DNA of 64,000 bases from positions 185,360 through 249,359 of IMG/VR virus record IMGVR_UViG_3300032007_000006; one strand, given 5' to 3'. The notes beneath the pieces were generated by a model. That model saw nothing but the letters and a program-made list of their open reading frames with translations. It was not told the DNA's origin and made no database searches. Position numbers and translations under genes: made by a program. The DNA comes from a virus. Lineage: Duplodnaviria > Heunggongvirae > Uroviricota > Caudoviricetes. Below are positions 17,599 to 64,000 of the stretch, piece by piece. The first letter of the stretch is position 1; each line of letters starts with the position of its first letter.

Positions 17599-17720
17599 TG
17601 CCTTCTCCTAAAAAATGTCTGGCAGGGATGGGCTGATTTGAACAGCCGAGTGACGGAGTCAAAGTCCGTTGCCTTAACCAGCTTGGCTACATCCCCACAT
17701 TCTGCATTTAATGCAGTTCC

Positions 17721-48828: not shown

Positions 48829-49379
48829 TTTATCTTGAATGAAACCAATTTTCCATCCTTGAACTTGGCTCGAAGTTTTCCCGCCATGGAGCAGGAGATA
48901 TTAATTCTTGAAGTGCCATCATCCTTCTTTTTCTTGAGATAGATGTCCATTAGCATGGACTTGTCCATCTGCGTCTTAAAGATGCTTTCCTTGGGAGCGT
49001 TTTCATCCTCCCTCCATTCGATAAAGTCTTCAGACTGAAGCATCTTGGCCAGATCATTGACAGCGGTGTCAATAGTTTCTCCAATTTCAAGGACTTCCCT
49101 CAGATTCTGAAGGATTCCAAACCAGTGAAGAGCAAAGGATTTCTTTCGCTCATAGTCATTAAGGATTTCAAGGATTTTTTCGTTTGGATTGTTGACATTT
49201 GTCTGCATTTCGGAGGCCAGCTTGTCTCCAGCGGCAAACAGTTCAATCAAGTCATTTTCAGACTTTTCCTTCCAGAATGTTTCTGGATGGTTGCTCTTCA
49301 TCCAGGCCTTCAAGGCTCTGGCAGAGGCTGTTGGATCATGTACTAGGGCTTCTGTGAGCCATTTCTGGAATGAAGTCAT
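48825..49379 (-). CDS. Putative internal protein with N-terminal CTS MTSFQKWLTE (184 aa)
   Basis: CTS-like N-terminus; AGGAG SD. Confidence 0.5.
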   Translation of the reverse strand: MTSFQKWLTEALVHDPTASARALKAWMKSNHPETFWKEKSENDLIELFAAGDKLASEMQTNVNNPNEKILEILNDYERKKSFALHWFGILQNLREVLEIGETIDTAVNDLAKMLQSEDFIEWREDENAPKESIFKTQMDKSMLMDIYLKKKKDDGTSRINISCSMAGKLRAKFKDGKLVSFKIK

Positions 49380-49387
49380 GGATTCTC

Positions 49388-49951
49388 CTAAAAGTAGAAG
49401 TTCTTTACTTTGCCATTGGCAAAGATGATATTGAAGTTGACGCCTCCATTAAGTTTCACCATTCCCTTGTAGGTGTCAATTTGACGGAGAATGTCTTTTT
49501 CGTTGACGTCGTCAAAGAATGGAACGGTAAATTTTCCCTGTTCCATGTTGTAATACTTGTGCTTCTTTGCAAAGGCCACAAGTTTCTTGATCGCCTCTTC
49601 CTGACTGTCACCTTTTGAAATGCAGGAAAGAACATCCATTAGATTTTTGGAATATATCATGTATCTTCCCTTGATCATTTCATATCTGTCGGCCATTTTC
49701 AAGGCCTGCCTGCATTCAATCTGCCAGCGTCCAGCGTGGTCTTTCTTGGCAAAGGCCACCATATTGGCGACATGCTTGTCCATTTTGGTGAAGAACTTGC
49801 CAATGGGCTTGCCTGCATAGATGAGGTCATCAACTTCATCAATATAGAGCGAAGTTCTGTCAGTGACATACTGAACGGCCGACATGTCGGAAAGAAACTT
49901 GGTATATTCTCTGTCTGCGGATTCAGCAAGATATGTAGAAAATGATTTCAT
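49388..49951 (-). CDS. Putative internal protein with N-terminal CTS MKSFSTYLAE (187 aa)
   Basis: Internal ATG of the ORF-track ORF; CTGTAAATA motif 24 nt upstream. Confidence 0.5.
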   Translation of the reverse strand: MKSFSTYLAESADREYTKFLSDMSAVQYVTDRTSLYIDEVDDLIYAGKPIGKFFTKMDKHVANMVAFAKKDHAGRWQIECRQALKMADRYEMIKGRYMIYSKNLMDVLSCISKGDSQEEAIKKLVAFAKKHKYYNMEQGKFTVPFFDDVNEKDILRQIDTYKGMVKLNGGVNFNIIFANGKVKNFYF

Positions 49952-49974
49952 TTTATAATTTGACATAGTAGAGA

Positions 49975-49983
49975 TATTTACAG
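49975..49983 (-). promoter_or_regulatory. CTGTAAATA late-promoter-like motif
   Basis: Upstream of the CTS gene at 49951. Confidence 0.35.
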
Positions 49984-50040
49984 TAGTAGATAGTCTATGT
50001 GTGCAGTTTTTTTGTGTTTGAATAATTTGTTGGAAGTATC

Positions 50041-50128
50041 TTTTCCATGCTCCATCAACTTTGATGTAGCAATCGCTAGCGGAATTTATAGTTTTCTGGG
50101 AATATGAGACTTTAATATGCGTAGCCAT
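50041..50128 (-). pseudogene. Truncated duplicate of the 5' end of the 50200-50757 gene
   Basis: MATHIKVSYSQKTINSASDCYIKVDGAWKRYF versus MPAYVKVSNAYKTVNSEYDCYIKVNGAWKICDQ; the reading frame then runs into the unrelated CTS gene. Confidence 0.4.
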
Positions 50129-50199
50129 AAAAGCTTCCGAAATTTAGAGTTAGTCTATTGGTTCGGCTCACCCTCTCTTTATAACATTATCCTTCTATA

Positions 50200-50757
50200 T
50201 TAGGTTCTTTCTGTATATTCAATTCTGTCATCTTGAATGTTAAATCCCCATTGACTAAGACCACTATATGAACTACCTTGTCTTGGCCAGGTAATTTCAA
50301 ATGAAGGATTTGATGATGTGGCAGTATACTGCAATGATACCCATTTTTGATATCGTCTATCTATGTCAACATAATAGAGATCACCATAATTATTTTGATT
50401 ATAAAGCCAGACATTATTTCCAGATGCATATGCTCCATATGCTTTCACAAACATCGAATTTCTTAGAACTGTTCCTTGTACTCCACTATCGCCAGCTGCT
50501 ATCCAAACTTTTGCATTGAAGCAAATCGTTATAACGCTTCCAACCGGTACACTTGAAAGATAATTTGTTCCATCATCTCTATGAATTATTCCCCATTTAG
50601 TTGCAGGACGAGTTTTTGTATAGCATATTTTCCATGCTCCATCAACCTTTACATAAATTTGATCACAAATTTTCCATGCTCCATTGACTTTTATATAGCA
50701 GTCGTATTCAGAGTTGACAGTTTTATATGCATTTGAAACCTTTACATATGCTGGCAT
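50200..50757 (-). CDS. Hypothetical protein (185 aa) adjacent to the tail fibre; putative distal fibre or assembly component
   Basis: Internal repeat YIKVNGAWKIC / YVKVDGAWKIC. Confidence 0.45.
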   Translation of the reverse strand: MPAYVKVSNAYKTVNSEYDCYIKVNGAWKICDQIYVKVDGAWKICYTKTRPATKWGIIHRDDGTNYLSSVPVGSVITICFNAKVWIAAGDSGVQGTVLRNSMFVKAYGAYASGNNVWLYNQNNYGDLYYVDIDRRYQKWVSLQYTATSSNPSFEITWPRQGSSYSGLSQWGFNIQDDRIEYTERT

Positions 50758-50766
50758 AATATTCTC

Positions 50767-53670
50767 CTAGTTGATGTACTTGAAGTATATGTCGCCATCA
50801 TTGCCACCAGACGGATCACCTGTTCCATAGCGTATTGTCGCTCCAGCAGTAATTGCTCCAGAATTTAGATATGTCAACTGATGTGCTCCGCCAACATTTG
50901 CATTTGAAGCAGTCAATGTTCCACCATTCATGTACATTAACTGCGTTGTAGAACCAACTGTATCTCCAGATGCAGTTAATGTTCCTGCATTGAGATATAT
51001 CGGTTTCTTTGCACTTCCAACTGTATCTCCAGATGCTGTTATCTTTCCACCACTTAGATATACTGGATTTTTGGCATTGCCAACATTGGACGTTGATTTT
51101 GTAAGTTTTCCTGAACTTAGGAATATAGGCTCTGTTCCGGAACCAACTGTTGTTGTGGTCTTTGTCAGTGTTCCTCCAGTCAGATATATGGGTTCGGTTT
51201 CTGAACCGACTGTGGATGTAGATGCAGTTATTGTTCCACCTGTCAGATATACTGGCTTTATTCCTGAACCAACTGTTGAATTTGAAACACTAATTGCTCC
51301 ATTGTTGAGATATACTGGCTTTATTCCGGAACCAACTGTTGATGTTGATGCCGTTGCAACGCCTTTATTGAGATAAATCGGAACAATTCCAGAACCGATT
51401 GTGGAGAGACCAAGTTTTGATGCAGTAGTTGCTATATGATTAAGCTGCTTTTTGTCGCCGCGAATATAGTATATTTTTCCAGTGAATTCATTGGAAGCAA
51501 TGCGTCCGTGACCAATTGTTTCGTATATTTCGTTGATGCAATGTGCATTGCTTGTAGATACATACTGTCCGCTTGCATTTGCTTCCCAGCGAATGTCATT
51601 TTTGATGTCATAGACAATGGCATCCTTGATGTTTTTAGAATTCAGAGCGGCAATGGTAACTTCAGCATCTTCAGTTGATTCGCAGACGTATACGCCTTTT
51701 ACCATATAGTCGGCCTGCCAGGCCTGATCTGCTGGATTTCGCTTGCTTTTTGCTCCAAACAGCATCATTCCTTCATCCATCATGTGGATGACGTTCATTG
51801 GATTTGTTGCTGGATCAATTGGAATAAGTGGAGTCGGTTCTGGAACTGGATCATTCTGACGTTCTATGTATTGAACATAGGATTCTCCAAGAAAGTCCGT
51901 TATATTTTTTATTTCTTCAAATATGGAATTTCCTACGAGACTTTTCAGTCCTCTGCAAAGTTCCTCTGGTGCCATGGAACCAAATAAAAGTTCCTTTAGA
52001 TTGTGTGGACCAGATTTTGGTTCATCTTCATCAACGCATACTGGAGCTGAATTAAACAAGTCAATAAGATCTTCTCCAATGGCATCTTTAAGAAGAATTG
52101 TTTCCTTTAGCAAGGAGCCTGTAGACATTCTTTTCCAGATGCTGCACATTGTTTCGTTGACTGCCAGATCTCCAAATAGAAGATCTCCAATGTCTACTGG
52201 ACTTGGATCAGATGAAGATATTTTCCAGCTGTCATTCTTGCTTTCTTCAAGAAGACACGTTTTTGTTTTAGATGCAGATTCGCTGGAAGAAACTGAATAT
52301 GTTACGTCCTGATAAATTCCTGGAACAATTGTATCGTATGTTGCTTCAATAAGACTCCAGGAATTTCCAGAATATGCAAAAAGGCCGGTCTTGCTGCATT
52401 CAAATTCCGAATCAAAGAATCCAGAGTTGACATTCAGTTTTACAGCAATGCATGCGGCATCTCCTTCCTTTGGTGAAGGAACCATTGTTCTTATTGGAGA
52501 TGGATTTCCTCCTCCGCCATTTAAGGCATACTTGATGAATTCCTGCTTGATAAGCGATTCCATTGTTGTAACGCTGGAATTGCCAGAAACAGTCTTTATT
52601 GCTGCAGTAGATGAAGGATTTTCAGCCTGCTGTGCAGTAGTTGACGTTAGTGTTGATGGATAGAGATACTGCTTGGAATTGTATGTAGGAACTGGAAGAT
52701 TATACTCATTTTGAGAATGGCCTTTATAGTCATATCTCGTTTGATTTAATCTGGCCCAGTTTCCATTTAAGCGTCTCCAAAGCTGCTGTCGTTTAGTTGT
52801 AGATTCAACCATGCATCTTTTATTAGTGTCTGTTAGCCACTCATAAAATGGAAGACCAATGCGGTCGATTATTTTGACTGTTTCTGTAGCCAGTCCACCA
52901 GTTGTAAATCTATCCCATACTTCTGAAAAATTTGCATTGCCATTAAAGAAAAACTGCCGCAGTCCTCCAATTGGACGACTTCCTTGAACAGGAGACAATT
53001 TGTCCAGCCAGTCATAGAAGGCTGAACTAAAAATGTCTTCTATGACATGCATCAATGAATTAGCCAGTCCTTGTGAATCTCCATGCAGATTGCGACAGGC
53101 TCGTCCAAATATGTCATCTGTATCTGCATCGGTTCTATCTCTTGCACCGAATAGCATTTCGGCCAGATCGGCTGGTTCTCCAATGCTTGTACCAGTTTTT
53201 AGCGTATTATCTGGATTATGAGTCTTGTTGTAAAAGTAGGAATAAAGACTTCCCCAGGTATTGATATTTCTTTGAAGCAGCTTGTCTATGCTCTGTACAA
53301 GACCAAACTTGTGGGCCTTTATTCTTTTCGTTTCTGTGCCATCAAACGTTGTGCCAGTTCCACCAACCTTTGAAACTCTTGAGTTTTCTGGAACATCTGT
53401 TCCATCTGGCTTTTTCGTGGCGATCTCCTCTTCAAAGAATGGAGATCTCTTTCGCCCAGGAATTGGAGTAGTCCATGCAATAGTAACTGGAGTATCATGC
53501 GTTTCGGTTAATCCGAGCGTGTATATAAGATCATTAATTCTCTGCCACCATTCCCCCATAATGTTTGTATAGTCAAGTGGAGTGACGGCATATATTTCCT
53601 TCAATTGAGTGCATCCTTTAATGAATTCGCTCAATCTAGATTTGGTTGAATTATTTCCTGCGTCAGGCAT
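50767..53670 (-). CDS. Tail fibre protein (967 aa) with nine C-terminal 19-aa repeats
   Basis: Repeats VGSG.KP.YL..G..T.S.ST x9 at about 50800-51400; TTGTAAATA 22 nt upstream. Confidence 0.6.
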   Translation of the reverse strand: MPDAGNNSTKSRLSEFIKGCTQLKEIYAVTPLDYTNIMGEWWQRINDLIYTLGLTETHDTPVTIAWTTPIPGRKRSPFFEEEIATKKPDGTDVPENSRVSKVGGTGTTFDGTETKRIKAHKFGLVQSIDKLLQRNINTWGSLYSYFYNKTHNPDNTLKTGTSIGEPADLAEMLFGARDRTDADTDDIFGRACRNLHGDSQGLANSLMHVIEDIFSSAFYDWLDKLSPVQGSRPIGGLRQFFFNGNANFSEVWDRFTTGGLATETVKIIDRIGLPFYEWLTDTNKRCMVESTTKRQQLWRRLNGNWARLNQTRYDYKGHSQNEYNLPVPTYNSKQYLYPSTLTSTTAQQAENPSSTAAIKTVSGNSSVTTMESLIKQEFIKYALNGGGGNPSPIRTMVPSPKEGDAACIAVKLNVNSGFFDSEFECSKTGLFAYSGNSWSLIEATYDTIVPGIYQDVTYSVSSSESASKTKTCLLEESKNDSWKISSSDPSPVDIGDLLFGDLAVNETMCSIWKRMSTGSLLKETILLKDAIGEDLIDLFNSAPVCVDEDEPKSGPHNLKELLFGSMAPEELCRGLKSLVGNSIFEEIKNITDFLGESYVQYIERQNDPVPEPTPLIPIDPATNPMNVIHMMDEGMMLFGAKSKRNPADQAWQADYMVKGVYVCESTEDAEVTIAALNSKNIKDAIVYDIKNDIRWEANASGQYVSTSNAHCINEIYETIGHGRIASNEFTGKIYYIRGDKKQLNHIATTASKLGLSTIGSGIVPIYLNKGVATASTSTVGSGIKPVYLNNGAISVSNSTVGSGIKPVYLTGGTITASTSTVGSETEPIYLTGGTLTKTTTTVGSGTEPIFLSSGKLTKSTSNVGNAKNPVYLSGGKITASGDTVGSAKKPIYLNAGTLTASGDTVGSTTQLMYMNGGTLTASNANVGGAHQLTYLNSGAITAGATIRYGTGDPSGGNDGDIYFKYIN

Positions 53671-53691
53671 GGCTTCTGCAAAATGTCTTGA

Positions 53692-53700
53692 TATTTACAA
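53692..53700 (-). promoter_or_regulatory. TTGTAAATA late-promoter-like motif upstream of the tail-fibre gene
   Basis: CATTGTAAATATCAAG context. Confidence 0.4.
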
Positions 53701-53759
53701 TGATTGAAGATAGACGACTGTTTTATAAAATGTAAATAATCGAACATAAAACATCTCAT

Positions 53760-54062
53760 ATGCCTTCAAATCCAGCAGTTCCAGGTGCAACGGCAACGCA
53801 TGTGCATGGAATTCCAAAAACAGTTACAGCCACTAATCTTCCAGGAACAGTAATGTTTGGAAAACTGTATCCTCTTCATATGGGAGATCCATGGTTTGTG
53901 CATTATGTTCCTGAATGGGAATCGGCCCATCCAACAGTTGTATCGAATGGAGCACCAAACGTTCTCTGCGATAAGAGACCGCTAGCCATTACGGAATTGT
54001 CAAATGTTCAGTGTGGACAAATAACGCTGTCGCCGATGCAGATAGTTATCATAAAACCCTAG
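53760..54062 (+). CDS. Hypothetical protein (100 aa)
   Basis: ATGTAAATAAT motif 21 nt upstream. Confidence 0.35.
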   Translation: MPSNPAVPGATATHVHGIPKTVTATNLPGTVMFGKLYPLHMGDPWFVHYVPEWESAHPTVVSNGAPNVLCDKRPLAITELSNVQCGQITLSPMQIVIIKP

Positions 54063-54083
54063 ATTGGCAGATATAGGGATGGG

Positions 54084-54112
54084 TTGACAGGACCACAGAA
54101 ATCTGCTATTTT
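54084..54112 (+). promoter_or_regulatory. Sigma70-like promoter TTGACAGG-N16-TATTTT
   Basis: Upstream of the endolysin gene and CTS gene cluster. Confidence 0.45.
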
Positions 54113-54255
54113 CTTCATGTTTGAGGAGAAAAGGACATTTTCTGACAAGGAGTCCTGACGTGGCGAAGTTAAATATTTTGCAGTGCATCCTGAAGACGCC
54201 GATGGGTGGAGCATTCTCCGTCGTTGTTCTGTCGGTGCTTCTGGGTGGAGATTAT

Positions 54256-54774
54256 ATGGCAAAGCAAATTACCGAGAATTTCACTCTCGAAGAAATGTAT
54301 CGTTCCGCTACGGCAGAATCTAGAAGAATTGACAATCGTCCTTCAAAGGAAATTGAAGAAAATCTAACGCATCTGGTAAAGAACGTTCTTCAGCCTCTTA
54401 GAGATCATTTTGGAGTTGCCATCAGAGTAACTTCAGGATATCGTTCTCCCGCATTAAATCGCGCAATTGGTGGTTCTCCGTCATCCTGGCATTCTCATGG
54501 ATGCGCCGCCGACATTCAAATTCCATCTGGAAAGGTGTCCCTCAAGACTATTTTTGAGTACATCTACAACAATCTTCCATACACGGAACTCATTGCAGAA
54601 GGCATTGACAGAAATGGAAGAGTTTCATGGGTTCATGTGGCTCTTGTAAAGGGACGCGAAGCCAAGAACAATCTTGATCCCGCTGGTCGTCTCTGCACGA
54701 AATACATGAAATCATCTGAAGGGGCAGTCTACAGGGCTTCCTTTGACAAAATCAGGGGAATGATGAAAATCTAG
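54256..54774 (+). CDS. Peptidase M15 (VanY / L-Ala-D-Glu peptidase-like) endolysin, 172 aa
   Basis: SGYRSPALNRAIGGSPSSWHSHGCAADI, the M15 Zn-binding H...D...H signature. Confidence 0.7.
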   Translation: MAKQITENFTLEEMYRSATAESRRIDNRPSKEIEENLTHLVKNVLQPLRDHFGVAIRVTSGYRSPALNRAIGGSPSSWHSHGCAADIQIPSGKVSLKTIFEYIYNNLPYTELIAEGIDRNGRVSWVHVALVKGREAKNNLDPAGRLCTKYMKSSEGAVYRASFDKIRGMMKI

Positions 54775-54788
54775 TAGGAGATTGTTTG

Positions 54789-55124
54789 ATGAAATCGTTT
54801 GCAGACTATGTAAATGAAGCAGGAATCACTGATGGACCACAAAAGGCCAAGTGGATCATTGACAAGAAGCGTCGTGGAGAGATTATTCTGAAGGCTGGAA
54901 CCAAGATGCTTTTCAGAATGTGCAAGTATCAAAACATGATTGAACCATACTCCGTCAAAATGATTTACTCTACCACGCGGAAAAATCCTGGTAAGCTCTT
55001 CCCAACATTGAAGGATGCTATGGCCCATATTGACAAGATGTTCGCCTATGCAATCCTTGAAAAGTACATTGTAGAGCCTATGTCTAAGGATGTTCAAGAC
55101 TGGCTTGAAAAATGCGTATTCTAG
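54789..55124 (+). CDS. Putative internal protein with CTS MKSFADYVNE (111 aa)
   Basis: First gene of a 5-gene tandem CTS cluster. Confidence 0.5.
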   Translation: MKSFADYVNEAGITDGPQKAKWIIDKKRRGEIILKAGTKMLFRMCKYQNMIEPYSVKMIYSTTRKNPGKLFPTLKDAMAHIDKMFAYAILEKYIVEPMSKDVQDWLEKCVF

Positions 55125-55138
55125 TCAAGGATGCTTAA

Positions 55139-55465
55139 ATGAACACATTCAACGACTATATTCTTGGTAAACCAGTTAAATCTTCCAAAAGAAAGGCCAA
55201 GTGGAGCATAGACAGGAAAAATCCAAACTATGTCAAGCTGAAATGCGGTCAAAAAGTCTTGTATGTGCTGAACAAGATTGTAGGTCGCAAAACTGACAGA
55301 CCTTATATGGTTTCACTTTCATCTGGAGGCGCAAATGCCTGCAGAACGTTCAATGATGCAATGACTTTTATAGAGCATATGCTGACTACAGCAAACTTTG
55401 ATCTATATGAAGTGGAACCAATGAAGATGGAAGTGAAGAATTGGCTTGAAAGAGTTGAAAATTAG
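55139..55465 (+). CDS. Putative internal protein with CTS-like MNTFNDYILG (108 aa)
   Basis: Paralogous architecture to its neighbours (C-terminal ...W.E(K/R)...). Confidence 0.5.
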   Translation: MNTFNDYILGKPVKSSKRKAKWSIDRKNPNYVKLKCGQKVLYVLNKIVGRKTDRPYMVSLSSGGANACRTFNDAMTFIEHMLTTANFDLYEVEPMKMEVKNWLERVEN

Positions 55466-55474
55466 GAAAAGTGT

Positions 55475-55963
55475 ATGAATACGTTCAAGGAATACATTAA
55501 AAATCATCTAACTGAAGATAGTATAGACAATCCGTGGTCTAAAATAAGAACTTTGGGCATTTCTTCGGAAAATCGTCAAATTTCTCCATCTCAGTTTGAA
55601 GAATGGATTAGAGCATGGAAGAAGCTGGCCAGTGAAGGCAATTACAGCGACATGCAGTGGAAAAAGGGAAATCGAGTCGGTGCTGTTGTTGTTAGGCGTG
55701 GAAACAAGTCTTATTTCACGTTGAAAAAGTTTCCTGCCTCATCTATCGGAGATGCCTTCTATCGCTTGGAACTTAGTTATGGACTAAAGGTTTCTGCATC
55801 CTTCAAAAGGCCGCATTGGGATTTCAAGACGCTGGAAGATGCTTTGATGGTAGCGCAAAGATGCAAAGAACAGGATCGCAGCGCCGATGGTCTTGCATTT
55901 CCTGCTTCAATGCCTGGCACTATCAAGGACTGGCTGGAAAAAGACATTACAGGGGAAAAGTAG
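55475..55963 (+). CDS. Putative internal protein with CTS MNTFKEYIKN (162 aa)
   Basis: CTS-like N-terminus. Confidence 0.5.
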   Translation: MNTFKEYIKNHLTEDSIDNPWSKIRTLGISSENRQISPSQFEEWIRAWKKLASEGNYSDMQWKKGNRVGAVVVRRGNKSYFTLKKFPASSIGDAFYRLELSYGLKVSASFKRPHWDFKTLEDALMVAQRCKEQDRSADGLAFPASMPGTIKDWLEKDITGEK

Positions 55964-55965
55964 AT

Positions 55966-56553
55966 ATGAATACGTTTAAGGAATATATTCTAGGGGAAGA
56001 GGTTGAGAAGAATGACCTTTTCATTGGAATGCCTGTTCTGAAATGGGAAAAAAGCGATCCTTTCACTATTCTTCTTAAAGGAGAGTTTCTTAACTGCCAG
56101 TCTAAAGAGACTAGGCAGAAACTGAAAGCAGACATGGAGTCTGGACGTCTAAGCAAGACGCAAATAGCCAGAGCAAAGAAGCAGGCTATTGAATTTATTG
56201 GTTCTGTTGTCAATGCATCCATGATGGCCAATCAGTACAGTCTCTCCATTTCAGAATATGCCAAGCAGATTTCAAGAAACGGAGTTCTTCTTGCTCCAGC
56301 AACGGATGAAACTTCCTATTTTGTCTGCGCCCATAGAAGCGTTTCTGGAATGGATGCAAAGGCTGTTCTTCCAGTCAAGGATTTAAAGAATATTCAGTCT
56401 GACATGACAAAGGTTCTTGTCTCTGAACTGAAAACAGGCAAAAATCCATTTCTGTGTCTTGACAGGGCGGCAAAGCCGAAAGACATTGTCGTTCCCAAGC
56501 CATCAAAAACCATGATTGACTGGATTGGCGAACCATACGTTAAAAACATATAA
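55966..56553 (+). CDS. Putative internal protein with CTS MNTFKEYILGEE (195 aa)
   Basis: Internal ATG 3 nt after the upstream stop. Confidence 0.5.
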   Translation: MNTFKEYILGEEVEKNDLFIGMPVLKWEKSDPFTILLKGEFLNCQSKETRQKLKADMESGRLSKTQIARAKKQAIEFIGSVVNASMMANQYSLSISEYAKQISRNGVLLAPATDETSYFVCAHRSVSGMDAKAVLPVKDLKNIQSDMTKVLVSELKTGKNPFLCLDRAAKPKDIVVPKPSKTMIDWIGEPYVKNI

Positions 56554-56556
56554 CGA

Positions 56557-56565
56557 TTGTAAATA
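56557..56565 (+). promoter_or_regulatory. TTGTAAATA late-promoter-like motif 21 nt upstream of the 56586 ATG
   Basis: GATTGTAAATATCAAAAC context. Confidence 0.4.
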
Positions 56566-56585
56566 TCAAAACAATATCTTGCAAG

Positions 56586-57710
56586 ATGAATACATTCAAC
56601 GAATATATTTTTGAAGCTGGAGCCACTACGGCAGAACCTCTTCACTGGGCCATTGATCCACATGTGGACAGATGCATTCTTCTGAAGCGTGGCAGAAAGT
56701 CCATTCTTGGAATTGACTTTGATGGAAAGAACTACACCGTAATGACAGATCCAAAGGACAAGTCTTCCATGGGATGTCAGAAGAGCAAGTTTGTGGACGC
56801 CTTTGCCATGGCGCAGGAACTGCTCAATGACAAGCTGGAAGGTGCCTTGATTCCAGCATGTCCTTCCAATATCCGTCGCTGGCTCAAGCGTGGACCAGAA
56901 AAGTCCGAAGATGATGGAATTGAAATGTCTAATGAAAGCGTTTCGGAATCTTCAGATGAATGGGAAACTGCAACGTCTTCCATTCCCAAGGACTATTTTG
57001 AATGGATCAAGGGAAAGAACGAAGGCGAAGTTGTTTTAAGACGCCGCAGGAAAAACTACATTAAAGTGTGCAAAAGAATTCCTGATCCAGCAAATTCCAA
57101 GTTTTTTAAGGAATGGATTAAGGAAAAGCCATACTGCATGAAGATGTATGCCTATTCCATGGAGAATAAGTCACATCTTAAACTGGAATACGCCACCCTT
57201 GAAGAACTGTTGAAGAGTGCCGAATCCTACAAAAAAATGGACTACAGTGCCAACGCATTGAACTTTCCTGCCATGCCAGACGATGTCAAGGAATGGCTGG
57301 AAAAAGGATACAAGAATCCAAGCTCGGAAGTTGTTTCTGAGGCTGCAGAACATGTATTCAGATGGGAAATATTCAAGAAGTATGCCAACAAAGTGTCTCT
57401 CATTCTTGATGGCCGCTATGAAGTGGCCTCTATCTATAGAAACTTTGGAAAGAGTGCAGACGTTCTTCCTTATGCTATTGAAATCTATTCCTTCAATCAT
57501 GCCTGCGAATTTGCTGGTCTTGAAAAGACCATCGCGGATGCAGTGGCCAGAGTTGCAAAGGAGCTTATCCATCCAATCAAGCTGAAAGGCGATCCTCAAA
57601 TGGCTGGCGTATCTGCCGCCGATGTCAAGATTCCTCCAATGCCTACTTCTGCAAGGCTGTGGCTTGACAAGTCATTTGACGAAGCAACCATTCTATCCGA
57701 GAAAAAGTAG
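56586..57710 (+). CDS. Putative internal protein with CTS MNTFNEYIFE (374 aa)
   Basis: Largest member of the cluster. Confidence 0.55.
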   Translation: MNTFNEYIFEAGATTAEPLHWAIDPHVDRCILLKRGRKSILGIDFDGKNYTVMTDPKDKSSMGCQKSKFVDAFAMAQELLNDKLEGALIPACPSNIRRWLKRGPEKSEDDGIEMSNESVSESSDEWETATSSIPKDYFEWIKGKNEGEVVLRRRRKNYIKVCKRIPDPANSKFFKEWIKEKPYCMKMYAYSMENKSHLKLEYATLEELLKSAESYKKMDYSANALNFPAMPDDVKEWLEKGYKNPSSEVVSEAAEHVFRWEIFKKYANKVSLILDGRYEVASIYRNFGKSADVLPYAIEIYSFNHACEFAGLEKTIADAVARVAKELIHPIKLKGDPQMAGVSAADVKIPPMPTSARLWLDKSFDEATILSEKK

Positions 57711-57820
57711 CATTTCTTTAAATATTAAGCTTTATAGCATATAAGGGGGTGGGACTGTTGTGTCCTGCTCCCTTTCTTTCTTGTCGCTTCCTTTTGGACT
57801 TTTCCACGGAGGAAACTGAA

Positions 57821-59266
57821 ATGCAAATGGTCAAGGAAATGCTTGAGTTCATTGTAGACACAAGGCTTGCTGGAGAAGACAACGTCAAGACTGGAATTCC
57901 ATTCCACCTCCAAAAGCAGGAAGCCACATTGATTGTAATGTGGGGAGACAAGACGCATTCCATCCTGTCGGCCGACAAGTATTCCGATTCTGATGCCCTT
58001 GCTTCCGTCCATGAATATCCTGCTCCTGGAGAATATAAAATCTCCATCTATGTCGAATCTCCATACTCCTGGTCGGATGTATACATCTCTACGCTTGACT
58101 GCCAGGATGCCATATTCAACTGCATTCCTTCCCTGTTCAACGAGAAAACAGAATGCATGCGATACTTCAAGCAGACTTTGGTGGAGCTTCCAACTCCGCT
58201 GCCGCGAATGAAGGGATCCATTCAGTTCACTCTGTCCAATCCCGCAACTGGATGCAATGGAATAAAATTGAATGAAAACTTCTCGTTCCTCTTCATTCAC
58301 TGCAGCTCCTTAAGAAAGATTCATCCAAAGCTGTTCTCCAGCAACAAGCATTCCATCAGCTTCTCCTACTGCTTCTATGGATGCAGCAAGCTTGAAGAGC
58401 TTCATAATGAGATGTTCAAGGGATGCTCCACTGTTCTGTCCTATGCCTTCTGCTTCTTTGGATGCTATGAATTGAAGACTATCCCAAGCGATCTGTTCAA
58501 GGACTCGTTCAAGGCGCAGGGATTTAGAGGCGTGTTCAAGGACTGCCTTGGCCTGCGGTCCATTCCAGAAAACCTTTTCAGTGGATCTTGCTCGGCCGAA
58601 CTGTTTTCCGAAGCATTTCAGAACTGCATTTCCCTTCAAAGCATTCCAGAGAGACTGTTCTCCAGATGTCCAAACGTAGTTGGATTCTCCTCCACCTTCG
58701 AAAATTGCATATGCGTGACAAGCGTTCCAGAAAACCTCTTCAAGTGGTGTCCGAGAGTGCTGCACTTTAGATCCACCTTTTCCAAGAGCGGATTGAAGCA
58801 TGTTCCAGAAGACCTGTTTGCCGACAAGAAGTATGTCTCTTCCTATTCCTACGTATTCAGCTGGTGTGACATCGAGGACGTGCCTGGAAAGCTGTTCAAG
58901 GACTCCATCTATGCTGTGGACTTTTCTGGATGCTTTTATGGATGCAACCATCTCAGAAGCGTTGGAAGGGAGCTGTTTGCCAATGCCATATATGCAAGAC
59001 GATTCAGCCACTGTTTTTATGGCTGCAAGAATTTAAAAAAGGCTACCATCGAAATTTCTTCAAGAACGGTAGACACGGCCTATCTTTTTATTGAAAAGAA
59101 GGAAGATGCTGAAATTACAGTTGTAGCGCAGCGATTGTCTTCTACTGCAAAAATGCTTACACTAAAAAGCGAAAAGCTTGGAATTACTGTTGAAGAAAAG
59201 TCATTTGTCAAGGCTACGCTCAGAGCACTCTGGGAGTCAATTCTAAAAATTATGAGACACGACTAG
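57821..59266 (+). CDS. BspA-type leucine-rich-repeat (LRR_5-like) protein, 481 aa
   Basis: About 12 repeats of the F..C..L..IP..LF pattern (SIPENLFSGSCSAELFSEAFQNCISLQSIPERLF...); GGAGGA SD. Confidence 0.6.
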   Translation: MQMVKEMLEFIVDTRLAGEDNVKTGIPFHLQKQEATLIVMWGDKTHSILSADKYSDSDALASVHEYPAPGEYKISIYVESPYSWSDVYISTLDCQDAIFNCIPSLFNEKTECMRYFKQTLVELPTPLPRMKGSIQFTLSNPATGCNGIKLNENFSFLFIHCSSLRKIHPKLFSSNKHSISFSYCFYGCSKLEELHNEMFKGCSTVLSYAFCFFGCYELKTIPSDLFKDSFKAQGFRGVFKDCLGLRSIPENLFSGSCSAELFSEAFQNCISLQSIPERLFSRCPNVVGFSSTFENCICVTSVPENLFKWCPRVLHFRSTFSKSGLKHVPEDLFADKKYVSSYSYVFSWCDIEDVPGKLFKDSIYAVDFSGCFYGCNHLRSVGRELFANAIYARRFSHCFYGCKNLKKATIEISSRTVDTAYLFIEKKEDAEITVVAQRLSSTAKMLTLKSEKLGITVEEKSFVKATLRALWESILKIMRHD

Positions 59267-59282
59267 CAGAGATAAATCCTCT

Positions 59283-59311
59283 TGACAGGTCCTCTAAATG
59301 TTGGTATGCTC
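59283..59311 (+). promoter_or_regulatory. Sigma70-like promoter TTGACAGG-N16-TATGCT
   Basis: -35, 17-bp spacer, -10 TATGCT upstream of the second LRR gene. Confidence 0.5.
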
Positions 59312-59343
59312 TTTCTGAAATGCCAGCATAGGAGGACCTTTTT

Positions 59344-60972
59344 ATGTCTGAAGAATTTGCCAGCAATGAATTTGCTATAGACGTTCTATGTGATGAAAAT
59401 GGCTTTGTCGCCCTTCCGTTCCGATGCCTTGAAGAGGAAGGCCTTGAAGTAGACTGGGGTGGAGAAGCAGAAACTCTTTCAAAAGGAAGACTGTTTCTTG
59501 CAGAGCACAGATATCCAGAATCAAAAACCTGGCACAGGATTGTGATTAGGTGTGATGACTGGTCGAAAGTATGGATGGTCGCGATTGATTCATCTGTAGA
59601 AATTTTAAGCCGACTTGCTCCACAGAATGCCGTCAGCAAGGCTAGACACTGTACATGGAGATTTTTAACTCCACTTCCTAAAGTGGCTGGAATGCTGGTG
59701 TATGACTGGACAGAACTTCCATGCGATGCAGATGACAATTTTATTGTACGCGACTTTGAAACAACCGAAGCTCCCAACTCGCTTGAGCATTCCATGTGCT
59801 TCTTTGGAAAGATAGAAGAAATTCCACACGACTTCTTCTCAAACATTGAGGCTTCGTCCTTCAAAGGAGCATTTCAAGGATGCATTATCAAGTGTTCTAT
59901 TCCATATTCTCTCTTTTCTAAACAAGGCTCTGCAAAGTCTTTTGCATCATGCTTTGAAGAAGTGGAGTTTAAAGTTCAATTTCCTCTATATGAAGAAATG
60001 TTTGGAGACTGCACATCGGCAGAAAATTTTACTGGACTGTTTAGAGGTTCCAATCTGAACTACATTCCTGAAGGACTGTTCAAGGGATGCAAAGCGGCCA
60101 AGTCCTATAAGTCCTGCTTTAGTAGAACCAGAATAAAAGAGATTCCCAATGTAAAACTCTTTGGAGATTCTCCAGAAGCAGAAAACTTTAGCTTCTGCTT
60201 CAATGGATGCCATGAAATTGAAGTCGCTCCATCAAGAATCTTTTCTGGAACAAATGGAAAGGATTTTTCCTACTGCTTTGCCAACTGCACTCAACTTGAA
60301 ACGGTCGAAGCTCCATTTGTAGACTGCAGCAATGCCGAAAACTTTTTCGGATGCTTTAAAAACTGCTCTTCTCTGCTGGCATTGAGTGGTGTCGTGTTTC
60401 TATCTGCAGGCAAGGCCACAGATTTTGGCGAATGCTTTGAAGGATGCGAAAAGCTTGCCACAGTGTCGGATACGCTGTTTCAAAATACGCATGCGGCTGA
60501 AAACTTTGATGCAGTGTTCAAGGACTGCAAAGGAATAAAGAGCCTTCCGAAAGGACTGTTCTCGAAATGTCCAAATGCCGCATACTTCAATGCATCATTT
60601 ATGAACTGCATTTCTCTTGATGAAATTGCGGCAGATATATTCAGAGGATGCAAGGAAGCGGAAGAATTTGAATCAACATTTCAGGGATGCATTAATCTTT
60701 TTGTAGTGCCAGTTACTTTGTTTGCATGGTGCGAAAATGTCATTACGTTCAAGAAATGTTTTGATGGATGCATCAATGCCTTTGACAGCATGAAACTGTA
60801 CATTGCTTCCTCCTATGTTGCAGACGCTTCTTATTTTGTTCCATCAAACGCAACGTTCTTGAAGAATGCTGGAACTGTAGTGTTGATTAAGGAAGGAACA
60901 AAGACAGAAAGGACATTCATGCTTGAAGAAAGAAAAAATCCATATCTCAAGATTGAAACTCTGCATGCGTAG
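59344..60972 (+). CDS. BspA-type leucine-rich-repeat protein, paralog (542 aa)
   Basis: Same repeat pattern (F.GC..L..IP..LF); AGGAGG SD. Confidence 0.6.
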   Translation: MSEEFASNEFAIDVLCDENGFVALPFRCLEEEGLEVDWGGEAETLSKGRLFLAEHRYPESKTWHRIVIRCDDWSKVWMVAIDSSVEILSRLAPQNAVSKARHCTWRFLTPLPKVAGMLVYDWTELPCDADDNFIVRDFETTEAPNSLEHSMCFFGKIEEIPHDFFSNIEASSFKGAFQGCIIKCSIPYSLFSKQGSAKSFASCFEEVEFKVQFPLYEEMFGDCTSAENFTGLFRGSNLNYIPEGLFKGCKAAKSYKSCFSRTRIKEIPNVKLFGDSPEAENFSFCFNGCHEIEVAPSRIFSGTNGKDFSYCFANCTQLETVEAPFVDCSNAENFFGCFKNCSSLLALSGVVFLSAGKATDFGECFEGCEKLATVSDTLFQNTHAAENFDAVFKDCKGIKSLPKGLFSKCPNAAYFNASFMNCISLDEIAADIFRGCKEAEEFESTFQGCINLFVVPVTLFAWCENVITFKKCFDGCINAFDSMKLYIASSYVADASYFVPSNATFLKNAGTVVLIKEGTKTERTFMLEERKNPYLKIETLHA

Positions 60973-60990
60973 AAGGAAACAGGAGTGCAT

Positions 60991-61749
60991 ATGAAAGTAG
61001 GCCAGGTTGGAGAAGGAAAGGTTTATCTGCTTAACAAGGGAGGCAAGGTCTGGACAGACATTGCCGCGAGGTTTGTCCGTTCTGAGAGGCCTGTAGAGGA
61101 GATCATACAGTCGGACTATGATCCAAAGATTGTTAGAAACATTCTGGAGTCTGGACACTATGCGGCGACAGAATTTGATCTTCTTCTTTTTGGAGTTGAA
61201 GGCTATTCCAGAGTATGCGAAGTGCAGCTTGTACGCAAGCGTCTTGCATCCTATCTCATCAAGTCTGGACGAGCTGAACTGCATGGGAAGAGGACTTTTT
61301 CAATTGTTGCTCCAGACAATGTGCTGGACAGAAAGTTCACTGTAGACGTGAAGGGAGAAAAAGTGGCGCTGTCTGGACGCGACCTGGCCAGCATCTCCGA
61401 GCAATGGTATGAGAGTGGTCTTGAAGCTGGACTTCCAGAGGAGGATCTGCGGTATTTCAAGCCACAGGCTACGGAATTCAAGGCCATCATAGGGATGAAT
61501 GTTCATGCCTTAAGGGACTGGCTGAAAATACGGATGTGCCAGAATGCACAGGCCGAGATAAGAGATCTGGCGACCAAAATGTGCCATCTGGCGAAGGAAG
61601 CCTATCCTGACCTGATAGAAGGAGCAGGACCATCCTGCAAGGTGCTTGGCTACTGTCCTGAAGGCAGACTCCAGAACGCCAAGTGTAGGGGAAAGATACC
61701 GCTGAAGGAAGACCTGCTTGAAGCATGGAAAGCATACAAGTCAAAGTAG
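60991..61749 (+). CDS. thyX: Flavin-dependent thymidylate synthase ThyX (253 aa)
   Basis: ThyX signature R-[HK]-R-x7-S (VRKRLASYLIKSGR) plus YAATEFDLLLFGVEGYSRVCEVQL; AGGAG SD before the ATG at 60991. Confidence 0.78.
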   Translation: MKVGQVGEGKVYLLNKGGKVWTDIAARFVRSERPVEEIIQSDYDPKIVRNILESGHYAATEFDLLLFGVEGYSRVCEVQLVRKRLASYLIKSGRAELHGKRTFSIVAPDNVLDRKFTVDVKGEKVALSGRDLASISEQWYESGLEAGLPEEDLRYFKPQATEFKAIIGMNVHALRDWLKIRMCQNAQAEIRDLATKMCHLAKEAYPDLIEGAGPSCKVLGYCPEGRLQNAKCRGKIPLKEDLLEAWKAYKSK

Positions 61750-61757
61750 AATGAAGA

Positions 61758-61779
61758 GGGAGAAGCATATGCTTCTCCC
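61758..61779 (+). terminator. Rho-independent terminator (gggagaagcatatgcttctccc) after thyX
   Basis: 11-bp palindromic stem followed by TTGTAAATATT. Confidence 0.55.
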
Positions 61780-61788
61780 TTGTAAATA
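61780..61788 (+). promoter_or_regulatory. TTGTAAATA late-promoter-like motif directly after the terminator, 32 nt upstream of the kinase gene
   Basis: Recurring motif. Confidence 0.4.
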
Positions 61789-61820
61789 TTGAATGATCTC
61801 CATAGCATAGAAATTAATCA

Positions 61821-62195
61821 ATGAAAGGATATATTGAGTGGCTTAATGAGAATAAGCTGTTTGAAAAGGCCTTGAATGTTGGTGCTAAAAGCGCAATGCC
61901 TAAAGAAAATCAAGCAGTTATCTTGTCTGGTGGTGCGGGATGCTTTGCCGCCACTACTATGGTCAAAACTTCTTCTGGCCACAAGGCAATAAAGGATGTT
62001 GCAGAAGGAGACATAGTTGAATCGTGGAATGAAGAAACTGGACAGCTTGAATGGAATCCAGTTCTAAAGGTCAATGTATTTCCACCTGTAAAAAGAATGA
62101 TGCGATTGACTTTTGACAATGGCGAGGAAGTCATTTGCACGGAAGATCACGAATTTCTGGTTGATGGAAAATGGGTGCAAGCTAAGGATTTATAG
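61821..62195 (+). CDS. P-loop NMP-kinase-like protein N-terminal extein (with CTS-like MKGYIEWLNE) fused to a split-intein N-fragment
   Basis: ...AVILSGGAG then the intein CFAATTMVKTSSG (Block A) ... TEDHEF (Block B), then a stop. Confidence 0.6.
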   Translation: MKGYIEWLNENKLFEKALNVGAKSAMPKENQAVILSGGAGCFAATTMVKTSSGHKAIKDVAEGDIVESWNEETGQLEWNPVLKVNVFPPVKRMMRLTFDNGEEVICTEDHEFLVDGKWVQAKDL

Positions 62196-63465
62196 CAATG
62201 ATAATTTATAGACATCGCAATAAACCAGAAAATATTATATTTGATAGTATTGATGTAAAAGATATTATTAAAGAAATAACACATTTATATGCGTTGTCTA
62301 ATCCAATGTTTATTCAATTTGGAGATTTATCTTTAACTGCTTTGAATATTTTTATTATTAATAATATAAACAAATCGTTTAACGATAATAAACTTATTAA
62401 AGAATGCACTAAAGCACTTAATGAAGTGTTGAAAGTTAATTATCAATGTAAACCATCAAGTAAATTTTTAAACTATGGATATTATATTGAATGTGGTCAT
62501 TCTGAAGAAGAAGCAAAAATAATAGTTTCTAATATTCAAAAAAGTCGTTCTAATAGATGTGTTGAATATTGGATCAATAAAGGATTTACTAATGAAGAAG
62601 CATTGATTAAAGTAAATCAAGTACAAAAGCAATATGCAGAAAAATCAGCAGAAAAATTATCTTTAGATTATTGGTTAAAATATGGATTATCTTATGATGA
62701 AGCAATTATTAAGCAAAAGGAATATAATTTAAAAATTGCATCTTCGTCAAAAGAGCATTTAAAACAAATTAATCATAAATCTGATGAAGAAATTGAACAG
62801 ATTAGAAAAGTACGATACAATACTAGAGATCCACAAATATGCGCTCTTCGTCATAATATTAGTATAGATGATGCAAAAGCAATTGTTAAAGATCGTATAG
62901 CACGTTCTACCTGTTGTGGAACAAAAAATGGAATGTACGGTCATAAATCTCCATTAAGATCTGGTGCAGCATATAGTGGTTATTATAAAGACTTTTATTT
63001 TAGAAGCTTTTCTGAATATTGTTTTATTAAACTTCATGAAAGTGAAGACATACATTCAGCCGAAGATAAATTTAAAGTTGTTTGGAAAGAGGGAAAAACT
63101 TATCGACCAGATTTTATTATTGGTGATACAATCTATGAGATAAAATGTGACTATATGTTGGATAATGATGAAACAAAACTTAAATTGAAAGCTTTAAAAG
63201 AAATGTATCCAGAATATAAAATTATTCTTGTTCCTGCAAAATCTATTCCTAAACCTCCAAAAGAAATTGTTTTGAATGATATTGAAAATGGAAATTTGCG
63301 TATAGTTGAGTCAAAAATGAAAAAGTTTAAACAGTTTATGGAGAAATATAAATGAAAGTTATAAAAAAGGAATACATAGACTGGAATGAAGATGTCTATG
63401 ACTTGGTCGTTGAAAGGGCTCACAGCTATGTCATTGGAACTAAATCTGACATCATTGTTCATAAC
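61941..63465 (+). mobile_element. Split intein plus free-standing HE cassette inserted in the P-loop of the kinase gene
   Basis: IntN 61941-62192, HE 62198-63355, IntC 63352-63465. Confidence 0.6.
62198..63355 (+). CDS. Free-standing homing endonuclease (PD-(D/E)xK) between the split-intein halves, 385 aa
   Basis: RPDFIIGDTIYEIKCDY (PD...E.K), GTKNGMYG motif shared with the HE at 46936-47877; extremely AT-rich. Confidence 0.5.
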   Translation: MIIYRHRNKPENIIFDSIDVKDIIKEITHLYALSNPMFIQFGDLSLTALNIFIINNINKSFNDNKLIKECTKALNEVLKVNYQCKPSSKFLNYGYYIECGHSEEEAKIIVSNIQKSRSNRCVEYWINKGFTNEEALIKVNQVQKQYAEKSAEKLSLDYWLKYGLSYDEAIIKQKEYNLKIASSSKEHLKQINHKSDEEIEQIRKVRYNTRDPQICALRHNISIDDAKAIVKDRIARSTCCGTKNGMYGHKSPLRSGAAYSGYYKDFYFRSFSEYCFIKLHESEDIHSAEDKFKVVWKEGKTYRPDFIIGDTIYEIKCDYMLDNDETKLKLKALKEMYPEYKIILVPAKSIPKPPKEIVLNDIENGNLRIVESKMKKFKQFMEKYK

Positions 63466-64000
63466 TCTGGAAAAGGAATGGTGTTGAACAACATCCTCAA
63501 CATTCCCAACGCCAGAGTGTTTGACGTAGACAAGTTAAAGAATGACATCATCAAGATGCGTCCAAAGTCCATGGCCGATGCATTTCTCAAGCAGACTGGA
63601 AAAAACCTGAAGCAGATCAATCTTGGCAATCCAGATGACGTGGCCTTGATACACAAGTTTGTCTCGGACAACAAGTACGACAAGAAAGTCATCAATCAGT
63701 TCTTTCTCAGCAATGGAGATGTCTGGCCTGATGGCACTCCAAAGCCAGAAAAGAACCTTCACAAGCCTAATGTAGTGTTCGACGTCACTCTCAAGGATGA
63801 AAAGAAGATGTTTGAACTTTGCAGGCTTCTTCAGTTCTATGGATGGGAGAAGAAGAACATTCATCTGGTATGGATTCTGAATGACTTCGAGATTGCTTCC
63901 ATGCAGAACCAGGAAAGGGACAGAAAGGTTCCGCAGGACATTCTGAAGCAGACTCATGTTGGCGCTTCGGACACCATGAGGGAGATCGTCACAAACTTCG
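63352..64000 (+). CDS. Split-intein C-fragment (38 aa) fused to the kinase C-terminal extein; partial, runs off the window
   Basis: VYDLVVERAHSYVIGTKSDIIVHN then +1 Ser; SGKGMV completes the Walker A GGAG|SGKG; no stop up to 64000. Confidence 0.6.
   Translation, partial: MKVIKKEYIDWNEDVYDLVVERAHSYVIGTKSDIIVHNSGKGMVLNNILNIPNARVFDVDKLKNDIIKMRPKSMADAFLKQTGKNLKQINLGNPDDVALIHKFVSDNKYDKKVINQFFLSNGDVWPDGTPKPEKNLHKPNVVFDVTLKDEKKMFELCRLLQFYGWEKKNIHLVWILNDFEIASMQNQERDRKVPQDILKQTHVGASDTMREIVTNF

Follow-up and report, generated by a model that had tools for sequence, protein, structure and literature searches.

Introduction

Two adjacent genes of an uncultured phage raise the question of whether stand-alone leucine-rich-repeat (LRR) proteins, placed under an early-type promoter, belong to the virion. 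The genes, referred to as A and B, occupy positions 57821-60972 on the plus strand of the window, that is, the whole stretch of 64,000 nucleotides analysed here (positions 185,360 to 249,359 of the IMG/VR record IMGVR_UViG_3300032007_000006, Caudoviricetes). A first, sequence-only reading had described two paralogous BspA-type proteins built from repeats of about 23 residues, and the two large open reading frames (ORFs) are indeed present at these coordinates, both with a start codon preceded by a Shine-Dalgarno (SD) sequence. The present analysis adds a repeat period of 27 residues, a PKD-like cap, a jumbo-phage origin and the structure of the transcription units. It leads to the proposal, to which we assign an even chance of being correct, that A and B are virion-exposed ligand-binding proteins with an accessory function in host recognition or adhesion.

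Repeat Architecture and Family Assignment

A BLASTP comparison of A and B gave 34% identity across the repeats (E 3e-33), the N-terminal parts being alignable too, and the two proteins are paralogs along their full length; the 64-kb window has no third copy. The motif F..C..L..IP..LF put forward in the sequence-only reading is real, with a repetitiveness far above chance: comparison of each protein with itself, judged against shuffles, produced a single sharp peak at 27 residues, with z-scores of 16.3 for A and 9.8 for B. The supposed period of 23 residues had to be rejected, its signal remaining at background (z = 1.2 for A and 0.5 for B). Laid in register, the repeats amount to ≈ 10 units in A and ≈ 13 in B; the spacing is 27 residues, occasionally 26-29, the latter being the range of the units in B. 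The consensus of the repeat reads F-x3-F-x-[G/D/N]-C-x2-L-x2-I-P-x2-L-F-x8, with the F, C, L, I/P and L/F positions near-invariant among 14 orthologs of A and the remaining positions variable.

The proposed membership of the BspA/LRR_5 family holds at the level of the superfamily but not in the strict sense. The Pfam model LRR_5 (PF13306) scored 25.0 bits on A, which is under its gathering score of 27.7, the Pfam scan of B returned no match, and the same was true for LRR_5 in all four B orthologs scanned. On the other hand, 8 of the 14 A orthologs matched LRR_5 at E ≤ 0.01 (best 3.6e-7), and seven concatenated copies of an idealised consensus 27-mer reached 37.9 bits on this model, above the gathering score. 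Among sequences of solved structure, the ortholog profile came closest to 4gt6, 4fs7, and TpLRR, in weak matches, while PHROG 9915, a family without annotated function, was matched strongly by both A (E 3.3e-53) and B (E 2.7e-45). Because LRR_5 remains below threshold or unmatched in A and B themselves, while the consensus and many orthologs match and PHROG 9915 is hit strongly, the two proteins are assigned on sequence grounds to the LRR clan, in its BspA-like branch, where they form a variant with 27-residue units and are not strict members of PF13306. Membership in the DUF285/PARCEL group was considered and rejected: the NCBIfam scan yielded only TIGR02167 (PARCEL), with 11.5 bits for A compared with a cutoff of 30, and PF03382 (DUF285) matched neither A nor B nor the consensus repeat, being confined to the distant homologs, many of which contain it.

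Predicted Fold and Domain Layout

Structural models were obtained with AlphaFold2 from an alignment of 14 orthologs for A (mean predicted local distance difference test, pLDDT, 91.7; predicted template modelling score, pTM, 0.89) and of six sequences for B (pLDDT 91.7, pTM 0.90). In both models an N-terminal β-sandwich leads through a short helical linker into an LRR solenoid, in which a short strand recurs every 26-27 residues; the C-terminus is closed by a small α/β cap, which in A ends in an amphipathic helix. The top Foldseek matches in the PDB were the LRR ectodomains of LGR4, Toll, the Nogo receptor and LRRTM2, together with the LRR_5 'cell surface protein' 4gt6. As the repeats of both proteins model as LRR solenoids and Foldseek leads to LRR proteins, the claim of a solenoid fold survives.

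The special feature of the N-terminal domain is the motif WGDG...HEY..PG.Y.I, which is invariant across the 14 A orthologs. Pfam PKD (PF00801 / PF18911) gave a weak match on A (residues 62-86, E 0.28). The domain aligns with the N-terminal modules of the protein P0019, one of which scores 27.5 bits on Pfam PKD, above the gathering score of 23.5. It is the invariant motif and this alignment that lead us to class the domain as PKD-like.

Neither a signal peptide nor a lipobox nor a transmembrane segment was detected by hydropathy in A or B, and the Pfam scan revealed no export or anchor domain. The N-termini are hydrophilic, with mean Kyte-Doolittle values of 0.08 and 0.27 for the first 30 residues, and hydrophobic peaks occur only inside the LRR core. 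Lacking signal peptide and transmembrane segment, A and B cannot be secreted bacterial adhesins, and this role was rejected.

Related Modules in Other Phages

In cultured phages the LRR block is found in tail proteins, with 29-36% identity over ≈ 250 residues. Protein gp35 of Klebsiella Reipivirus ST16-OXA48phi5.4 combines Tail_P2_I (131 bits) with Big_2 and LRR_5/DUF285 in a fusion with a P2-like baseplate gpI, and the 'tail protein' gp226 of Phapecoctavirus ESCO5, consisting of RCC1, Big_2, and LRR parts, adjoins a tail fibre. Along these lines, a phrog_9915 protein (E 7e-200) on viral contig L008 is encoded between a baseplate wedge and a tail-fibre gene, and a 384-kb contig related to the window carries a third LRR paralog amid large ORFs, two genes from a 1202-residue protein with a Peptidase_S74 fibre-chaperone domain.

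A search of 1.84 billion representatives placed the PKD-like N-terminal module in ≈ 100 protein clusters. Five of these proteins were read at the sequence level: three contain two to three [PKD-LRR-cap] units, and a signal-peptide-like N-terminus is absent from all five. The metagenomic proteins P0133, P0135, and P0139 (1100-1355 residues) contain three complete tandem [PKD-like - LRR - cap] units each, and every unit closes with the motif ...VYVP.(G)STT..TF....A..LGLTI, which is also terminal in A and B. A and B thus correspond to one unit each of an architecture that is modular and built by concatenation. The N-terminal extensions of the multi-unit homologs had no PHROG match that would mark them as tail anchors.

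The view that such proteins are unusual in a phage cannot be upheld. At a cutoff of E ≤ 1e-3, BFVD yielded 36 proteins similar to A and 50 similar to B, from Bacillus phage G, the Klebsiella phages Eowyn and N1M2, Aeromonas phage D3, uncultured phages (several Myoviridae/Siphoviridae sp.) and giant viruses, and many of these are already named BspA-family or LRR proteins. DUF285/LRR-type genes have likewise been annotated in large viral genomes, namely those of the jumbo phage vB_VhaM_pir03 and of Aureococcus anophagefferens virus (PMC7765460, PMC10720644). The fold, the family and its occurrence in large phages are thus already known. In the literature searched, no function has been demonstrated for BspA/LRR proteins of phages or giant viruses, the record comprising annotations and the proposal of one structural preprint.

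Source Phage and Divergence of the Gene Pair

The locus and 25 kb of the window were compared at the DNA level with 50,697 phage records in a search for near-identity, and no near match appeared except a tRNA-sized hit. The product of rIIA in the window is ≈ 31% identical to its best matches. The description as a T4-like phage is therefore not established, and on sequence criteria it would apply only remotely. Besides rIIA, the window encodes rIIB, NrdD, a glucosyltransferase-like gene, ThyX and inteins, and a gp45-type clamp was found in a more distant relative. Over positions 49344-64000 the window and a 326-kb metagenomic contig in ENA show 100% identity, and an identical B protein is also present on a 352-kb contig; the source is an uncultured jumbo phage with a genome of 326 kb or more.

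The IMG/VR scan for A and B returned distant LRR homologs (≤ 38% identity) and no orthologs, the latter being obtained, with 44-95% identity, from metagenome assemblies. All four ortholog contexts examined are syntenic phage-like loci, including those on the 326-kb and 384-kb contigs. A block composed of a large variable protein on the minus strand, an M15 peptidase, several small paralogs and A is kept in four related contigs, and in the closer relatives among them B and then ThyX follow A. The amino-acid identities to the 384-kb relative are 91% for ThyX, 80% for the 374-residue paralog, 77% for the M15 peptidase, 62% for A and 52% for B, while to the most distant relative they are 88% for M15 and 44% for A. 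From these lower values it follows that A and B diverge clearly faster than the adjacent enzymes.

A scan of genome contigs, restricted to two peptide patterns, revealed no close cellular homolog of A or B, the best being 23% identical and derived from a Bacteroidaceae metagenome-assembled genome; this being the sole match, no inference on host or donor is drawn from it. Accordingly, no evidence emerged for the earlier suggestion that A and B mimic host LRR factors, the hosts being bacteria. The same data bear on the idea that A and B are recently captured genes of bacterial BspA-type adhesins (morons), which would either act on the surface of the bacterial cell or be of no use to the phage. 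Its starting point is that the distant homologs include bacterial BspA-family surface proteins, some of them with BACON, PKD or DUF285 domains. Export signals and anchors are missing in A and B, however, the nearest cellular homolog is remote within the limits of that scan, the orthologs point to long conservation in a phage lineage in which every context examined is phage-like, and the promoter of B appears to be selectively maintained (see below). The missing export signals and the long-term conservation largely refute the capture of an adhesin, which we consider very improbable.

Transcription Signals

The sequence-only reading had credited each gene with its own promoter or a strong SD. 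For B both were found, a sigma-70-like promoter and the sequence AGGAGG; A has the SD sequence GGAGG but is located directly behind a strong intrinsic terminator, and a promoter scan detected no sigma-70-type promoter between this hairpin and A. The terminator structure is retained in the 384-kb relative with a different sequence. The promoter of B hardly differs between three phages, although the identity among their B proteins is only 52-75%, and to judge from this comparison it is under purifying selection. The window has ten sites of the form TTGACA-N16-18-TAnnnT, this promoter included; 9 of 10 are intergenic and correctly oriented, and rIIA, the M15 peptidase, and B are among the genes downstream. 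Together with the GGAGG-type SD sequences, this class suggests a host with canonical sigma-70/sigma-A promoters and not one of the Bacteroidota. ThyX starts 18 nt after B, no terminator was found between the two genes, and a terminator-like hairpin appears only after ThyX. B and ThyX are therefore probably co-transcribed, as what looks like a single unit dependent on the RNA polymerase of the host and, by analogy with T4, probably early.

A second recurrent upstream motif, TTGTAAATA(T), was observed at four positions and, in a weaker form, at a fifth. The fibre-like gene, a 348-residue gene, the intein-bearing gene and NrdD each have it 20-45 nt upstream of the start codon, and at two sites it is followed by ATAGCATA[GT]AA. 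To judge by simple counting, the motif may represent a phage-specific late or middle promoter.

Virion or Cytoplasm

According to the reading preferred here, A and B would reside on the virion of a jumbo myovirus-like phage and assist in host recognition or adhesion; the LRR surface would bind a structure on the host cell surface, and the immunoglobulin (Ig)-like and cap domains may serve as rigid end-pieces or docking elements. The analysis establishes the paralogy, the repeat period, the fold as predicted, the retention of A and B as a pair, their divergence ahead of the neighbouring genes, and the position of related modules inside tail proteins elsewhere; incorporation into the virion, a ligand and an effect on host range are what we infer. 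Such a location is favoured by the fact that every informative homolog is a tail component, by the combination of Ig-like and LRR domains, which recurs in tail proteins, by the divergence of A and B ahead of the adjacent enzymes, by the missing export signals, and by the presence nearby of the gene for a fibre-like protein of 967 residues, the C-terminal half of which varies between relatives.

Several observations weigh against an assignment to the virion. Neither protein has a recognisable baseplate or fibre anchor domain (Pfam; PHROG gave the LRR family only), and the immediate neighbours, i.e., the M15 peptidase, the uncharacterised paralog cluster, and ThyX, are non-structural. The conserved sigma-70-type promoter of B falls in the class of that of rIIA, which, together with the apparent co-transcription with ThyX, suggests early expression of B, atypical for a virion protein; the fibre-like gene carries the TTGTAAATAT motif in place of this promoter class. 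Furthermore, the per-position entropy of the repeats did not discriminate, since the variability among orthologs is not focused on the strand positions of the concave face and no hypervariable concave face was seen.

The missing anchor, the neighbours, and the promoter speak at the same time for a different explanation, in which A and B are early non-virion proteins whose LRR surface binds cytoplasmic proteins of the host for the purpose of takeover, anti-defence or regulation. In its favour one may further cite that neither protein has a signal peptide or transmembrane segment, that transcription from the strongly conserved promoter of B would run through ThyX before meeting a terminator, and that fast divergence fits an arms race with host proteins equally well as receptor binding. 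On the other hand, all informative contexts of related LRR blocks are tail or baseplate proteins or modules, the homologs of more than 1100 residues with two to three tandem PKD-LRR units resemble fibres and not effectors, and the label 'early' for the promoter class has been assigned by analogy with T4 only. PKD and other Ig-like domains of phages were reportedly located in virion structural proteins by Fraser and co-workers in 2006, which also counts against a cytoplasmic role. On balance we hold this explanation to be possible, if doubtful. A narrower form of it, in which the stand-alone PKD-LRR pair would act as early intracellular decoys or inhibitors that neutralise host defence or regulatory proteins and are co-transcribed with nucleotide-metabolism genes, strikes us as unlikely; it would be the first time that an intracellular function is assigned to this widespread class of viral LRR proteins.

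What distinguishes the locus under either reading is a compact and well-modelled pair with one [PKD-LRR-cap] unit per gene, syntenic, fast-evolving, and provided with defined transcription signals. If virion-exposed, A and B would be candidate host-range determinants of a jumbo-phage lineage that is uncultured and has so far been met in metagenome assemblies alone; if early and intracellular, they would constitute a new use of the fold.

Neighbouring Genes and Other Features of the Window

The coordinates of the features are compiled in Table 1. The protein of 967 residues is encoded ≈ 4 kb upstream of A and B on the opposite strand. It has ≈ 10 tandem 21-residue repeats of the type VGSG.KPVYL..G.....S.ST near the C-terminus and ends in GDIYFKYIN. 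Only its N-terminal ≈ 300 residues are conserved (≈ 50%) among relatives, between which its length varies: 945-967, 982, 1512 and 2092 residues. A tail fibre would typically show such a pattern, so that the protein may be termed fibre-like, and it had no sequence match in Pfam or the PDB. Its vicinity has led us to consider A and B as non-virion assembly or accessory factors which bind or chaperone fibre tips, either of this protein or of others. LRRs are generic protein-binding scaffolds, and the synteny of A with the variable gene and the M15 peptidase is kept in the four related contigs. The fibre-like gene, however, lies on the opposite strand, with six genes in between, and in a separate transcription unit, and we know of no fibre chaperone with an LRR fold; a role in fibre assembly is therefore rated as improbable.

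Five tandem genes upstream of A (111, 108, 162, 195 and 374 residues) form a paralog family. Four of the products start with MNTF.[ED]YI and the first with MKSFADYV, all end in a motif of the type ..WLEK/WLER/DWIGE, and the 374-residue member seems to hold three copies. None of the three paralogs scanned against PHROG (108, 162 and 374 residues) and neither of the two scanned against Pfam (162 and 374 residues) had a match. The cluster is kept between the M15 peptidase and A in 4 of 4 related contigs.

Downstream of ThyX, an apparent 'fractured gene' reaches the end of the window and continues at L004:12478-14923, with GC down to 0.33. Its first part is a 124-residue ORF composed of a ≈ 40-residue N-extein (...ILSGGAG, then C) and the N-terminal half of a Hint/intein domain; this is followed by a free-standing 385-residue ORF with a weak endonuclease match and by a 304-residue ORF which opens with a C-terminal intein-splicing segment. 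The arrangement resembles the combinations of split intein and homing endonuclease that Dassa and colleagues are said to have described in 2009. A tRNA-Gln gene (anticodon TTG) occupies the 316-nt gap after rIIB and accounts for the sole megablast match obtained with the window, a stretch of ≈ 60 nt that is 86-88% identical to Staphylococcus phage fragments. A protein of 355 residues matched PHROG 842, 'beta-glucosyl-HMC-alpha-glucosyltransferase' (E 6e-37), which hints at a T-even-like hypermodification of DNA in this jumbo phage.

Table 1. Positions of the features within the 64,000-nucleotide window and the basis of their assignment.
Feature	Position	Strand	Basis
Gene A, 481 residues	57821..59266	+	ORF and ATG with SD; ortholog alignment; AlphaFold2 model; phrog_9915
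Gene B, 542 residues	59344..60972	+	paralog, architecture as in A; BLASTP with A; AlphaFold2 model; phrog_9915
SD of A, GGAGG	57808..57812	+	8 nt 5' of the A ATG; read from the sequence
SD of B, AGGAGG	59330..59335	+	8 nt 5' of the B ATG; read from the sequence
PKD-like Ig domain of A, residues ~6-95	57836..58105	+	motif in 14 orthologs; P0019 alignment; β-strands of the model
Predicted LRR solenoid of A, residues 154-421	58280..59083	+	period z 16.3; one strand per unit in register; Foldseek LRR matches
Predicted LRR solenoid of B, residues 147-495	59782..60828	+	period z 9.8; register; DSSP
Intrinsic-terminator hairpin with U-rich tail, between the 374-residue gene and A	57743..57774	+	-22.1 kcal/mol, z -5.2
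Sigma-70-type promoter of B, TTGACA-17-TATGCT, TG-extended	59282..59310	+	scan; conservation
TTGACA-N16-18-TAnnnT sites	4510(-), 13498(-), 15882(-), 21171(-), 31521, 32726, 41683, 45155, 54084, 59282		
ThyX	60991..61749	+	Thy1 Pfam match on the identical contig; phrog_85; starts 18 nt after B
Palindromic terminator-like hairpin 3' of ThyX	61756..61781	+	scan; -19.2 kcal/mol, z -5.95
Motif TTGTAAATA(T)	3178(-), 31137(-), 53698(-), 61782(+); weaker 57719(+)		
Fibre-like protein, 967 residues	50767-53670	-	
Five tandem paralogs	54786-57710	+	
Apparent 'fractured gene', part within the window	61821-64000		
tRNA-Gln	17620-17696	-	
355-residue protein	6559-7626	-	PHROG 842

Comparison with Known Systems

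With the BspA-type/TpLRR proteins (LRR_5; PDB 4gt6, 4fs7, 6mlx) A and B have in common the core motif F..C..L..I.IP and the solenoid fold. They differ in their units of 27 residues, compared with ≈ 23, in the Pfam scores, which fall short of the gathering threshold for A and are absent for B, in the lack of export or anchor signals, and in being encoded by a phage. The DUF285/PARCEL proteins, with repeats of 26 residues, come close in repeat length (26-27 residues) and belong to the same LRR clan, whereas the TIGR02167 and PF03382 models separate them from A, B, and the consensus.

A further comparison is offered by the chimallivirus Goslar, likewise a jumbo phage, for which a preprint proposes host recognition by three proteins of the virion-associated DUF7941 family with LRR or β-helix domains, the proposed 'fibre cloud' (10.64898/2026.04.21.720040). 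A and B lack the DUF7941 module, and the phage described here is not known to be a chimallivirus. In gp35 of the Reipivirus and gp226 of ESCO5, an Ig-like domain precedes the LRR block and PHROG 9915 is matched, just as in A and B. At their N-termini, however, these two proteins have a domain for virion anchoring or of another kind (Tail_P2_I, RCC1 propeller), and they are encoded in tail modules, in contrast to A and B, which stand alone, have a PKD-like domain instead of Big_2, and are placed beside ThyX. Whether located on the virion or inside the host cell, A and B extend an existing class of viral LRR proteins and do not establish a new one.

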